Shown here: positions 50,066 to 53,648 of the stretch, in pieces
Numbering within the stretch: the first letter of the stretch is position 1
Layout: every line of letters begins with the position of its first letter
Assembly (NCBI RefSeq): GCF_045037415.1
Contig: NZ_CP173438.1
Direction: 5' to 3' (one strand)
From: Escherichia coli
GTDB taxonomy: Bacteria; Pseudomonadota; Gammaproteobacteria; Enterobacterales; Enterobacteriaceae
Length of the DNA: 64,000 bases
Translations under genes and position numbers: made by a program
The notes under the pieces: generated by a model
Database searches by the model: none
Told to the model about the DNA's origin: nothing
What the model saw: only the letters and a program-made list of their open reading frames with translations

Positions 50066-51463
50066 CTAGTCCTTCACTTTCATCGTGAAACCACGCCAGT
50101 CCGGTAGTGAAAGCGCGCCCGTTGCCACTACCCCATCATGATCCAGCATGCAGACACGACCAGGGTTCATACTGACAACCTCACGGATATACGCCTGCTC
50201 CACACCACAGATCATAAACGCCAACAGTGCCTTATTCCGCGCATATTGATGATGGTGAGTCTTTTCACGCTGATACACCTCACTATTAAGATCCAGTATT
50301 AATCCGACTTCATTAGCGTACCTGTGATAGTTACGCGGTGATGAACAACTCTTGCGGTGTGCGCCATGCACACGTTCCAGCAATGACTCAAGCGCAGATT
50401 TCAATGGACTGATATAACGGTTCCACCAACGCAAAATCTTTAGCGCCTTTTTTTTGCTGTTACCGCACCATCCATACACTTTTGCCCCAAGGCCATCATT
50501 AACACCAATAGTCACACGCCCAATTCTGTAGGTGGTGGTATGGACCATCTGTTTGCACTGTTTACGGGTCAGCCCGGTATGTTCCATCATGGTTTTATAT
50601 ATCGATGACTTCACACGATAATCGACGTCATACTGTCTGAACAGATGGTTCAGACAGGCCAGATTGCACGCTTCGATGTCATAGTTGAGTAACCCGGTCC
50701 GAAATTTAGCTTTGAACTCATTGGGCAGATTCTGGAAAGCTTGATCATAATACCGCCCTCCAAACGTCAGACGATAATGATGGTCGTAAGTGACATATTG
50801 TCCCTCAATCCTGCCATTGTAGAGATGGTTAAGGCTGCGTATTCCTGCGCGGTAATAGTGATCCGGCTCACGGCTACGCAATTCCTTCACAAACTGTATA
50901 CTCATGCGCCCCCGCCCAACTTTGGCCAAGAAGTCCTTTTCCGTTTGTTTTAGGGCCGTCTGGCGTTTCTCTACATCTATCGCATGCCCAGGAGCTTTCC
51001 CGTTCCCCTGAAGCAGAGCTCTAAAACTAACAGACTCACCAGTATCCAAGTCAACCAGATTTAACTTACCCCTGGCAGACTCATCACACACAGGCAGCAG
51101 GGGGTTGAACCGCCATGCACTGGCTCTACGCTTTTCCGGGTCTTTGCTCGCTTTTCCTGCACGAAATTCAATATCCGAAAGTGTCGGCAGGAAATCAGTT
51201 AGCGTGGACATAAAGCACTCCCCCTGGTAACTAATTTCACACTGTCCCAGGAGACTGGCATAGCTGCTACGGATATCCCGGACAGTGCATATAGTCCAGC
51301 CATCATCGTCTGTTTCCAGCCATATGTGAGCCAGGAACCACCGTACTGTCTGCCGCCGGGTAACAGCCCATTGCGTATCCCCCACGACATAATCCGTTAT
51401 TTCAGTAATACGGTCATAAACCCACTTAGGGATCTTCACTGGATAATCCTTTTCAGTACTCAC
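50066..51463 (-). CDS. hypothetical protein, possible primase/replication protein of the island
   Basis: 465-aa ORF, last gene of the AlpA-led operon; contains an hhhDhD-like stretch (LNLVDLDTGE) reminiscent of archaeo-eukaryotic primase motif I; assignment is speculative. Confidence 0.4.
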   Translation of the reverse strand: MSTEKDYPVKIPKWVYDRITEITDYVVGDTQWAVTRRQTVRWFLAHIWLETDDDGWTICTVRDIRSSYASLLGQCEISYQGECFMSTLTDFLPTLSDIEFRAGKASKDPEKRRASAWRFNPLLPVCDESARGKLNLVDLDTGESVSFRALLQGNGKAPGHAIDVEKRQTALKQTEKDFLAKVGRGRMSIQFVKELRSREPDHYYRAGIRSLNHLYNGRIEGQYVTYDHHYRLTFGGRYYDQAFQNLPNEFKAKFRTGLLNYDIEACNLACLNHLFRQYDVDYRVKSSIYKTMMEHTGLTRKQCKQMVHTTTYRIGRVTIGVNDGLGAKVYGWCGNSKKKALKILRWWNRYISPLKSALESLLERVHGAHRKSCSSPRNYHRYANEVGLILDLNSEVYQREKTHHHQYARNKALLAFMICGVEQAYIREVVSMNPGRVCMLDHDGVVATGALSLPDWRGFTMKVKD

Positions 51464-52039
51464 GGTCCCCTCTCAGCATCCTCGTCTCACTACATTAACC
51501 AAACTCAACGCTGGGCAATTCGAAAGTCAAAACCCCAGTCGCGAGGATGGGCTCCGCCCATGATTTGCTCCACTCCGGTCGCAAATCTTTCCCCCTGTTC
51601 AGGCTGACGCCTTCCCTCACTCGCTGCGCTCGTTCGCCGTATCGTTTAATGACATGAGAAGGAGATGAAGCCTCCGTAGTGCTGCATGTCCCCAAGCTCT
51701 CCGTTGCGCTCAATGGCAATGGTGCTCGCTGACCGCTCCCCCCATTGTGTGTAGAATATTCACTGACAGAAACACAGAAAGCCCTCACAGATGCGCTAAC
51801 TCGTCAGTTGATGGTAAGGATCGGGTGTGCAGAGGCATCCGTGAGCCCCTGCAGAAAACAGACGGTTGCGTTAAAATCGAGACAGTTGGAATGTTAAAGT
51901 GCATCAGCGCCATCAAAATCACTGGCAAGCTTTGCAGTTTTACAACAACGAAAATGCAGTGGTTGCCGCTGTTATTCGTCGTTCCACTGCAATTTAATCA
52001 ACAGCAAAAGTGCATTGCAGTTGCTGCATTACCGGTAAA

Positions 52040-52894
52040 TCAGTGCACTTTCCCTGGGGGTTGCCCAAACGAAAAAGAAACGACACCTGTTCCGAGTGAG
52101 TCCAGGGTAAGCAGACTTTTTAACAGTGTCCGGCCTTTCAGTAGCTCCATTCTTGACTTAACAAGAGCGTCTTTATCAGTCAGTGTGTAATCTGCTGTGT
52201 GCCAGACTGGATTCAGGGCGCATGAAATCAGTCTCGCGGGATCTTTATACCTGAGCACGATCACTGGTGTGTTAAGCGTCGATGCATCAATGAATGCCCC
52301 ACCACTTCGCGACATATGCGCTTTTAGCCCCTTAATCAACGTACTGTCATTGGGCAGGAACAAACACAACTGTGGAACCCAGAAAATACGCTCTTCTGGG
52401 CCATCAGGCATATGTCGCATCATACTGAAGGTGCCTGTGGCCGGACCGGCGTACCCCAGGCGGTTAAGTACCCGGCTTATCCTCTGCTTATAACGACCGA
52501 TTTGCGCCCTGAGCGCCCCAATGTTCTTCCATGGCGGCGGAGTTTGCGTATCCTTGTTGAAAAACAGGACCACTCCCACGTATTCTGCTGAATTCCCCGG
52601 CAAGACATGCAACATAGCCAGTTGCGCCAGAATGCGTTCCCGCTGGCAATGCGGGCATATAAGACTGTTGCATGGAGATCCGTTTCTGCACTGCCTTAGT
52701 TTTTGAGCAATGATGTTGTAGCAGCGATTGCTGCCTTTCAGTTTATTTAGTAAATGGTTAAGACGCTGCAGTTCATACTCACTTTCCTGCTGGGTAATAA
52801 TAGTGGGGAATGCTTTACTTAAAATCTCAAGCATTGACGGTGCGTGACGAATGTAATCCGGGTCAGATGTTCTGAAGTAATAAGAATCGTTCAT
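52040..52894 (-). CDS. hypothetical protein with Cys-rich zinc-ribbon-like motif
   Basis: 284-aa ORF with CNSLICPHCQRE; no recognisable catalytic motif. Confidence 0.45.
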   Translation of the reverse strand: MNDSYYFRTSDPDYIRHAPSMLEILSKAFPTIITQQESEYELQRLNHLLNKLKGSNRCYNIIAQKLRQCRNGSPCNSLICPHCQRERILAQLAMLHVLPGNSAEYVGVVLFFNKDTQTPPPWKNIGALRAQIGRYKQRISRVLNRLGYAGPATGTFSMMRHMPDGPEERIFWVPQLCLFLPNDSTLIKGLKAHMSRSGGAFIDASTLNTPVIVLRYKDPARLISCALNPVWHTADYTLTDKDALVKSRMELLKGRTLLKSLLTLDSLGTGVVSFSFGQPPGKVH

Positions 52895-52981
52895 TTAATA
52901 TTCCTAGCTGTATTGATTACCCTGCCACCAAAATGCAGTGGCAGGGTAATATGTCAGTTTTTCACCATACAGAAATGGCTA

Positions 52982-53497
52982 TTACCCGAATGACCTCGCC
53001 TGAGCATCTTCATGCCGCTCAACTAACTTATTGTAATCCCAATGATAAGAGGAATTTTTGTCGTTTGTTTCTAAAAAATCTAAAAATAACTCAGGCAACT
53101 GATATAAAGCGTATTCCCCGGTTACATCCACCCCCTGATAATGTAATTGCTGAGCGGTAGAACAATATGCACAGGCCCTGCTCCCGCAGGGAATGTATTT
53201 ACAACGCTCAAGGATAAGCGCCAGTTTAGCGTAGTTGCTCCACATGTCATCGGCCCCGCCGCAATCCTGTATGAGAATATTGGACACTGTATATGCAGAT
53301 GCGTAGTTAAGCTTACGTATCCGTAAACGCTGCTCCTTTAACACTGCTGATATCGTTTCTTGTGATAAACCAACCTGTTTCCCCATAGTTTCGAACCAAG
53401 GAACCAGCGTTTTTTTCGCAGAACTGGTTTTCGATTTTATCTCTTTCATTTCATTCTCCCGCCTGCATACGGCTGTTAACCCAGTTATTGATATCAC
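52982..53497 (-). CDS. hypothetical Cys-rich protein
   Basis: 171-aa ORF directly downstream of alpA (probable start at the internal Met MKEIKSK); contains CGSRACAYC. Confidence 0.45.
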   Translation of the reverse strand: MISITGLTAVCRRENEMKEIKSKTSSAKKTLVPWFETMGKQVGLSQETISAVLKEQRLRIRKLNYASAYTVSNILIQDCGGADDMWSNYAKLALILERCKYIPCGSRACAYCSTAQQLHYQGVDVTGEYALYQLPELFLDFLETNDKNSSYHWDYNKLVERHEDAQARSFG

Positions 53498-53648
53498 TCT
53501 CCAGCCAGCCTACCGCCCGGCCATTGTCGCCCGTTAGCCTCTTTGACAAAGGAAAGAATCCTTTCGAGATGAGTCGGTACAACGTCGCTGACGAGTTCCC
53601 CGTCAGATGAAGTACCTCTTTTTTACGCAAAATACGGTTGGTGTTCAT
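53451..53648 (-). CDS. alpA: AlpA-family transcriptional regulator / excisionase-like protein
   Basis: 65-aa ORF MNTNRILRKKEVLHLTGNSSATLYRLISKGFFP, a typical AlpA HTH protein. Confidence 0.85.
   Translation of the reverse strand: MNTNRILRKKEVLHLTGNSSATLYRLISKGFFPLSKRLTGDNGRAVGWLESDINNWVNSRMQAGE

Follow-up and report, generated by a model that had tools for sequence, protein, structure and literature searches.

Pipolins are integrative elements of Enterobacterales and other bacteria, equipped with a DNA polymerase gene of their own, tyrosine recombinases of the Xer-like type and defence cargo that can be exchanged (PMC11551731, PMC7385651), and the Pseudomonas transfer-messenger RNA (tmRNA) islands, which are transduced by a jumbo phage, combine a tyrosine integrase, AlpA, RadC, helix-turn-helix (HTH) and replication-type genes with defence cargo (PMC12595487). 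Defence hotspots in P4-like satellites and in chromosomal islands inducible by phages (PICIs) are described in PMC9122126. The locus described here occupies positions 50066 to 53648, minus strand, of a 64,000-nucleotide stretch of Escherichia coli DNA (NCBI RefSeq assembly GCF_045037415.1, contig NZ_CP173438.1), the whole of which is hereafter called the window. It comprises alpA, two genes coding for Zn-ribbon proteins, a conserved non-coding (cis) element and a gene coding for a 465-amino acid protein with the predicted fold of a family-A DNA polymerase. With a probability of about one half, the locus is the replication or propagation module of an integrative island at the 3' end of ychF, with a miniature family-A polymerase as its enzyme.

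By analogy, pipolins appear to be the closest functional counterpart of this ychF island, which likewise combines a polymerase, an Xer-like integrase and defence cargo in an Enterobacterales host. The polymerases differ, that of the ychF island having a predicted family-A fold whereas piPolB is a primer-independent enzyme of family B, and the ychF island additionally has a P4-type integrase, AlpA, a Mu-like c/ner pair and a cis element beside the polymerase gene. The closest general kit is that of the Pseudomonas tmRNA islands, with which the ychF island shares tyrosine integrase, AlpA, RadC, HTH, replication-type and defence genes; its polymerase, too, has relatives in jumbo phages. The Pseudomonas islands, in contrast, are described with inovirus Gp2-like and YqaJ proteins and without mention of a polymerase (PMC12595487), and host, insertion site and sequences are different. 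As in P4 satellites and PICIs, a P4/CP4-57-type integrase (NF007246) is present and alpA precedes the presumed replication genes, but the presumed replication enzyme is a polymerase instead of a primase/helicase. When the window proteins were searched with PHROGs and NCBIfam, no alpha primase-helicase, sid, psu, delta or epsilon was recognised, nor were there capsid-redirection or packaging genes, terS included, for which the earlier note on this DNA had proposed looking downstream. No description of such an island was found in the literature on AlpA/RadC/DUF2787 or self-synthesising elements, mostly non-subscription journals being covered.

The 465-aa gene (50066-51463, minus strand) codes for a winged-helix N-terminal region (approximately residues 1-215, 50819-51463) and a palm/fingers core of approximately 250 amino acids (approximately residues 216-465, 50066-50818), without an exonuclease domain. 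The AlphaFold2 model, calculated on an alignment of the island branch and a second, phage branch of the family, was confident (predicted local distance difference test, pLDDT, 89.2; predicted template modelling score, pTM, 0.84) and had the right-hand palm and fingers of the Pol I type. When it was compared with the PDB using Foldseek, the top 50 matches were all family-A DNA polymerases (best E value 2.5e-4, probability 0.98-1.00), including Taq, Bst, Klenow, Pol theta, Pol nu and T7; the fold additionally matched the RNA polymerases of T7, N4 and mitochondria.

Residues Y226, Y230, R237 (codon 50753-50755), Q244, N260, D262 (50678-50680), K304 (50552-50554), N384, G420 and E422 were invariant across the island and phage branches, which are 17-25 % identical, and H442-D443-G444 (50132-50140) was nearly invariant (at least 90 % conserved). 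Tyr or Phe occupied the position eight residues after K304 in the family alignment (Y312 here, 50528-50530). The 465-aa protein has the motif A Asp, the motif C Asp and the O-helix Lys with its aromatic residue. In hhalign comparisons with E. coli Pol I, T7 gp5 and a profile of 14 Pol I sequences (E values 0.03-0.05), the best alignment was in all three cases collinear with the expected motifs paired. GGRYYD..FQNLP was paired with TGRLSS..LQNIP of Pol I, NYDIEACNLACLNHLF with T7 motif A GIDASGLELRCLAHF, RKQCKQMVHTTTYRIG with motif B RRSAKAINFGLIYGMS and RDNAKTFIYGFLYGAG of the two enzymes, and LLAFMICGVEQ with INAPMQGTAAD; D262, K304 and Y312 were aligned with D475, K522 and Y530 of T7, and the motif B residues with K758 and Y766 of Pol I, the overall E value being weak in each case. 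The protein thereby resembles Pol I Klenow, Taq, T7 gp5 and Pol theta/nu in the collinear order of TGR..QNIP, motifs A and B, the QG before motif C, and HD. The individual residue equivalences, drawn from weak alignments and motif logic, should be taken as probable assignments. Membership of the 465-aa protein in the family-A (Pol I/T7-type) superfamily can be regarded as established by predicted fold and catalytic motifs, not by sequence statistics.

In the earlier note the protein had been suggested to be primase-like, possibly an archaeo-eukaryotic primase (AEP) or Prim-Pol, with reference to the hhhDhD-like stretch LNLVDLDTGE. Structure searches did reveal a nucleic-acid polymerase fold, but it is that of family A, and fold and motif conservation rule out the AEP reading. 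The stretch LNLVDLDTGE is present at residues 134-143, within the N-terminal region and outside the polymerase core, and its D138 is invariant inside the Enterobacterales branch but not family-wide. Since it is N-terminal and is not kept in the distant branch, it is not the active site, for which D262 and D443 are the candidates. The family was not found by term search in the 2023 PolA reclassification (PMC10201439) and the 2026 survey of bacterial polymerases (PMC12926913), and the 465-aa protein would, as far as openly accessible literature shows, represent a previously undescribed minimal branch of family A.

A non-coding gap of 576 nt (51464-52039), on which the earlier note was silent, separates the p284 gene, coding for the larger Zn-ribbon protein, from the 465-aa gene. 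At its p284 side, six AAANTGCA/TGCANTTT half-sites of alternating orientation form an array (51896-52051, no strand assigned), which includes two tight dyads, TGCA(C/T)TTT-N10-11-AAANTGCA, at 51988-52014 and 51933-51958. Six of the 11 half-site matches in the whole 64-kb window lie within these 156 bp, the chance expectation being 17 per 64 kb, and loci of Serratia, Yersinia, Budvicia and metagenomes have kept the dyads. The array is a candidate protein-binding site, either iterons or an operator. Nearer to the polymerase gene there is a conserved non-coding block (51548-51754, minus strand), a candidate origin or initiation site, which is headed by the motif CTACACACAAT-GGGGGG (51738-51754; CTACACACAAT-GGGGGGAGCG) and holds two GAGCG..CAGCGAG direct repeats (51725-51738 and 51620-51631), three hairpins whose loops vary on unchanging stems (51602-51611, 51563-51586 and 51549-51559) and an insert of variable length.

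In two segments of the conserved block, identity was 78-98 % between loci that share 55-63 % identity at the DNA level in the polymerase and p284 genes. The window contains the CTACACACAAT motif a single time, and each locus likewise has one copy, 184-304 nt 5' of the polymerase start, even in a locus (L002) with a polymerase of 45 % identity. A metagenome scan gave 47 exact motif matches, 13 of which were in such loci and 5' of the polymerase gene wherever the contig extends, while the remaining matches had no similarity to any window gene nearby. Judged from these comparisons, the cis element is under strong nucleotide-level selection. The block had no match in Rfam, and its folding energy was no better than that of shuffled sequences on either strand (z +0.50 and -0.16), so that a role at the DNA level, as origin or binding sites, is favoured over a structured RNA; the unvarying stems make covariation uninformative. 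A 97-aa open reading frame (ORF; 51495-51788) spans the block and sometimes reads into the polymerase gene, but 1-nt insertions and deletions between loci leave no conserved reading frame, and a small gene in the gap was therefore rejected. A scan for the sigma-70 consensus listed nothing on the gene strand at the CTACACACAAT motif, where a promoter is still possible. The idea that the motif is the promoter of a known phage group was also rejected, exact-pattern scans of IMG/VR giving one match per fetched stretch, in no case near a polymerase homologue. A single 276-kb IMG/VR contig appeared twice, and the one apparent co-occurrence of motif and polymerase, in L076, was due to a spurious alignment to a tail-fibre protein. 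Outside the gap, a perfect 13-bp inverted repeat (ATTACCCTGCCAC / GTGGCAGGGTAAT) with a 9-nt loop, TGCATTTTG, containing TGCA-TTT was observed at 52916-52950; as a conserved nick site it was discarded, the stem being kept partly and the loop motif not at all in close relatives.

The window has its matches in E. coli chromosomes, and in the sequence type 131 (ST131) strain MB1341 the module is in an island between ychF and dhaR. From ychF onwards this island consists of a P4/CP4-57-type integrase, insertion sequence (IS) elements, a DUF3999/DUF2339 pair, the 465-aa gene, two smaller genes, alpA, a divergent gene for a 208-aa protein, an Xer-like integrase, RadC and DUF2787, followed by an HTH pair, small genes, an ABC-three-component system and retron Ec67. 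A 12-nt repeat, TTCAACGTCTAA, forms the last codons of ychF (38348-38359) and has a second copy beyond the retron (38030-38041 of L001), outside the window. This suggests a candidate attL/attR core and an island of approximately 27 kb with its right end beyond the window, although a 12-mer is near chance expectation.

Serratia, Yersinia similis, Budvicia, Edaphovirga and numerous contigs from metagenomes have the same backbone order, HTH35-p175-(p119)-p111, p169-DUF2787-p179-RadC-Xer integrase, p208, alpA-(Zn-ribbon paralogues)-cis element-polymerase. Beyond the polymerase gene there is variable cargo and then, where the contig is long enough, a P4-type integrase adjoining ychF. The order is also kept in L006, whose polymerase has approximately 25 % identity and whose cargo consists of a type I restriction-modification system. 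On this gene order, alpA, the cis element and the polymerase belong to the conserved backbone of the ychF islands across Enterobacterales and not to the cargo; the earlier suggestion of a second cargo system did not survive, since the module is in the conserved backbone and the cargo on its far side varies. The minimal family-A branch may, on the model, be considered a hallmark gene of this island family.

The 465-aa gene was found in 590 of 5,426 complete E. coli genomes (approximately one in nine), those of ST131 included, and was uninterrupted in 585. The protein had 78 close relatives, all from Enterobacterales and all annotated as hypothetical. With tblastn the gene had no match in the phage collection, and its sole plasmid matches were in two very large E. 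coli replicons, and an origin of the E. coli gene from a plasmid or phage was therefore rejected.

More distant relatives are few. A search of 1.8 billion representatives added only a small number, matching residues of approximately 225-460, and the island and phage branches were aligned by hhalign over the polymerase half with a probability of 99.7 % (E 3e-26), whereas their N-terminal halves do not align. The second branch includes 13 IMG/VR loci, 12 of them on contigs of 210-268 kb. One of these (L155) was identified by BLAST as Erwinia phage pEa_SNUABM_2, with related jumbo phages of Erwinia, Dickeya (vB_DsoM_AD1, Alexandravirus) and Yersinia, in which the homologues are annotated as hypothetical. 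The AD1 homologue is located amid a putative primase, Holliday-junction resolvase, clamp loader and exonuclease. Other second-branch homologues were found in L005, a phage-like contig of 83 kb with a FEN nuclease approximately 2 kb upstream on the opposite strand, and in L066, with a UvrD helicase and a PD-(D/E)xK protein nearby. The jumbo-phage homologues are preceded by a non-coding stretch of approximately 390 nt (7450-7850 in L155, 9457-9860 in L166) with tandem repeats, GTAGCT three times and CCATGCCATGCC. AD1 gp214 has 350 amino acids in GenBank, and the ORF reaches approximately 535 amino acids in the related Erwinia phage.

The four minus-strand ORFs from which the locus had been described, alpA and those of 171, 284 and 465 aa, were all confirmed. 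The first gene of the unit, alpA (53451-53648), codes for 65 amino acids of an AlpA-family HTH regulator/excisionase; its product matches PHROG 2790 and 66, 'excisionase and transcriptional regulator' (E 7e-11), and the RefSeq annotation of identical DNA also names the gene AlpA. The gene is directly 5' of the module in L002, L006, L010-L013, L017, L023, L029, L030, L032, L036 and L049. For the next gene the mechanical ORF is 52982-53497 (171 aa), while the RefSeq start, an ATG 1 nt past the alpA stop, gives 52982-53449 (155 aa) and is likely the start of the gene. The p284 gene (52040-52894) completes an alpA-p155-p284 unit; the operon as originally proposed stands to that extent, the conserved cis element then preceding the polymerase gene. 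The 171-, 284- and 465-aa proteins had no match in Pfam, NCBIfam, PHROGs or PADLOC, and none with phmmer or hmmsearch against PDB sequences.

The short, fast-evolving p155 (p171) and p284 are paralogues with a shared C-x4-C-x4-C-x2-C pattern, linked by a local iterative hidden Markov model (HMM) search. The Cys-rich character and zinc-ribbon-like motif noted earlier were upheld: across the 284-aa family C69, C75 and C80 never vary, and C83 hardly does. The p284 model combines a Zn-ribbon with a ferredoxin-like fold, resembling an RNA recognition motif (RRM), but the fold match is generic, ACT domains and ribosomal protein S6 being matched equally well, and no primase or HUH catalytic signature was found in p284. 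Between one and three tandem paralogues are present between alpA and the polymerase gene at other loci, and p155 is 56-66 % identical where neighbouring genes exceed 90 %. The family is missing from L002 and L013, although alpA, cis element and polymerase are all present there, and in L006 an apparently unrelated protein of 381 aa (383-aa ORF) takes its place. From the sequences, p155 and p284 are possibly accessory, DNA-binding factors.

If the locus is a replication module, the island integrase would excise the island with the assistance of AlpA, and the polymerase would then be recruited to the adjoining cis element, which would serve as the origin, through its own winged-helix region, the Zn-ribbon proteins p155 and p284, or both. 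There it would copy the circular island by extending a transcript or a nick, or by initiating de novo, and so raise the copy number of the island or ready it for transfer. This reading is based on the polymerase fold and catalytic residues, the linked cis element, co-inheritance with alpA and the integrases, and the location of homologues near replication genes. The AlpA-linked, replication-type module expected by the earlier note is in this respect supported by the polymerase fold and the position in an island backbone unlike that of canonical P4, though the enzyme is not a primase.

Several observations weigh against a replication module. Pfam DNA_pol_A (PF00476) matched neither the 465-aa protein nor any of 28 family members, an HMM of the family found no match among PDB sequences, and the hhalign comparison with the Pol I profile (E 0.03, probability 1.7 %) has no significance at the sequence level; membership in family A consequently rests on the predicted structure and the pairing of motifs. 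In Pol I (E710) and T7 DNA polymerase a steric-gate Glu is located five residues past the motif A Asp, and the acidic residue of motif C, E883 in Pol I, gives the HDE typical of DNA polymerases. In the 465-aa protein, which also differs from these enzymes in its size, in having no 3'-5' or 5'-3' exonuclease and in its N-terminal winged-helix region, the steric-gate position is N267 (relatives have S, C, Q or F), and motif C reads HDG across the family, Gly replacing the third, acidic residue. With both features absent, the enzyme may polymerise either dNTPs or rNTPs and is perhaps no DNA polymerase at all. Nothing in the island was recognised as a helicase, primase or initiator. The jumbo phage PaBG, which one paper treats alongside AD1, is reported to encode a canonical Pol I fused to uracil-DNA glycosylase (PMC7412058), and if AD1-type phages also have such a Pol I, their small homologue would by analogy probably be accessory and not the replicase. 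Finally, many ST131 genomes have the module disrupted by ISEc52, the insertion being located in the cis element (approximately 51819-51821) or in the polymerase gene (approximately 50512-50518), which indicates that the module is dispensable for the host; it may be inactive in the interrupted strains. In WP3-S18-ESBL-08, ISEc52 separates the dyad array from the CTACACA motif, in MB1341 it is within the polymerase gene, two copies are present in the module region of AVS0343, and the window carries neither insertion.

The same deviations from DNA polymerases would fit a miniature T7-type RNA polymerase or primase-polymerase, which would start de novo at CTACACA(C)(A/T)AT-GGGG and make a primer, an R-loop or the transcript of its own gene. 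Motif C is HDS in T7 RNA polymerase, HDE in DNA polymerases and HDG in the 465-aa family, the steric-gate Glu is absent, and the residue four positions after the O-helix Lys is non-aromatic (H, L or I) in the Enterobacterales branch, although the phage-branch homologues keep the aromatic residue of DNA polymerases there. In ungapped alignment the motif resembles the T7 phi10 promoter (TAATACGACTCACTATA|GGGAGA) and is followed by a run of G, as at T7 starts. It scored 15/23 in the window (among the top 7 of approximately 128,000 positions), 16/23 in L002 (ACTCACTAT-GGGG, the single best site), 15/23 in L003 (tied with two others) and at most 14/23 in L010 (not among the top sites). The likeness was spotted post hoc and is a lead only, and the motif is not the best T7-like site in the window, L003, L010 or L029. 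The primary origin of T7 uses phage promoters, and a family-A-fold enzyme near a conserved CACTATA-GGG-like site recalls that arrangement, suggestively at most; unlike in T7, no separate RNA polymerase was found, and the 465-aa enzyme has about half the size of T7 RNA polymerase or less. One motif per island is not what a general promoter would give, IMG/VR scans found no phage contig with several copies, neither a specificity loop of the T7 type nor a promoter-binding domain could be identified in the protein, and the Pfam RNA polymerase families gave no match. A precedent for primer independence in family A is given by YerA41 (PMC9023294). Taken together, a miniature RNA polymerase or primase-polymerase of this kind is an unlikely explanation, yet the strongest of the competitors. 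Marginally less probable is the bolder proposition that this would be the smallest known self-sufficient family-A polymerase, its core directed by the winged-helix region to the T7-promoter-like CTACACA.AT-GGGG site beside its own gene and starting there, with RNA or DNA, in the absence of a primer, and that the ychF islands would be self-synthesising defence islands; they would then be a family-A counterpart of pipolins, and the jumbo-phage relatives would be accessory initiating polymerases.

Two other explanations are less well supported than either the replication module or the miniature RNA polymerase. The module could be a conflict system, acting in defence, abortive infection or anti-defence, in which the polymerase-like enzyme would make or degrade nucleic acid when a phage infects and the conserved block would be template or sensor. 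The islands are rich in defence genes (retron Ec67 and the ABC-three-component system, OLD/UvrD in L002, type I restriction-modification in L006), the jumbo phages have homologues and the possibly related PaBG has its own replicative Pol I, suggesting an accessory role, and the ISEc52 insertions in ST131 genomes, at least two of which are independent, could reflect a cost. Against this, the polymerase gene is in the backbone by alpA and the integrase while the cargo beyond varies, PADLOC recognised no defence family among the module proteins, none of the domains recognised was that of an effector, toxin or sensor, and the block has neither excess RNA stability nor an Rfam match; we regard a conflict system as rather improbable. 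Still further down is a rolling-circle replicon, in which HUH-like nickases, the Zn-ribbon/RRM proteins, would cut at the repeats, leaving a nick for strand-displacing extension by the mini-polymerase. The TGCA-TTT repeats do adjoin these genes, and the 13-bp hairpin at 52916-52950 bears the motif in its loop. Rep proteins of the HUH type have the HUH motif and a catalytic Tyr on an RRM-like fold, however, and neither p284 nor p155 has this combination: p284 lacks HUH and a conserved catalytic Tyr, its corresponding strand reading PQLCL or PQLRL without conservation. With a fold match no more specific than those to ACT domains and S6, a p284 that is absent from L002 and L013 where alpA, cis element and polymerase persist, and an unconserved hairpin loop, nicking by these proteins is very doubtful.

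Whichever activity the enzyme has, a gene present in about one ninth of complete E. coli genomes, including those of the pandemic ST131, is still annotated as a hypothetical protein, and a new branch of the Pol I/T7 superfamily, with an unusually small core and non-canonical residues for sugar selectivity, has apparently been overlooked by surveys based on sequence. For island biology, the proposed replication module offers a testable mechanism by which the widespread ychF defence islands could be copied once excised, with a defined cis element. Should the enzyme be capable of site-specific, primer-free initiation, it would combine compact size with a defined site of recognition, and this would bear on the divergence of DNA and RNA polymerases of the same fold.

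The island holds two tyrosine recombinases, the P4/CP4-57-type integrase adjoining ychF (38574-39749, plus strand) and the Xer-like integrase (54472-55416, minus strand), which is in the backbone next to RadC and is conserved in L006, L011 and L012. Farther along the backbone, p169 (57230-57739, minus strand; phrog_310, phrog_7148) has an N-terminal DNA-binding domain of the Mu-repressor/transposase type and is divergent from HTH35 (57840-58109, plus strand; phrog_769, NF007670), a Ner/SfsB-like repressor of 89 aa. The divergent arrangement recalls the c/ner switch of Mu. The adjacent p175 (58121-58648, plus strand) has no family match in PHROGs or NCBIfam and is the most conserved protein of the island backbone, with 71-82 % identity even where the polymerase has 25-60 %. 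Defence cargo at the far end of the island (60268-63807, minus strand, and past the window end) includes a 635-aa protein and the ABC-three-component system, with a retron Ec67-type reverse transcriptase/endonuclease in L001; the cargo elsewhere includes an OLD-nuclease and UvrD-helicase pair (L002) and type I restriction-modification (L006). The DUF3999/DUF2339 membrane-protein pair (45020-49111, minus strand), flanked by IS fragments, fills a variable slot that has the P4-type integrase on one side and the polymerase gene on the other, and DUF3999 is annotated as frameshifted in ST131 genomes.

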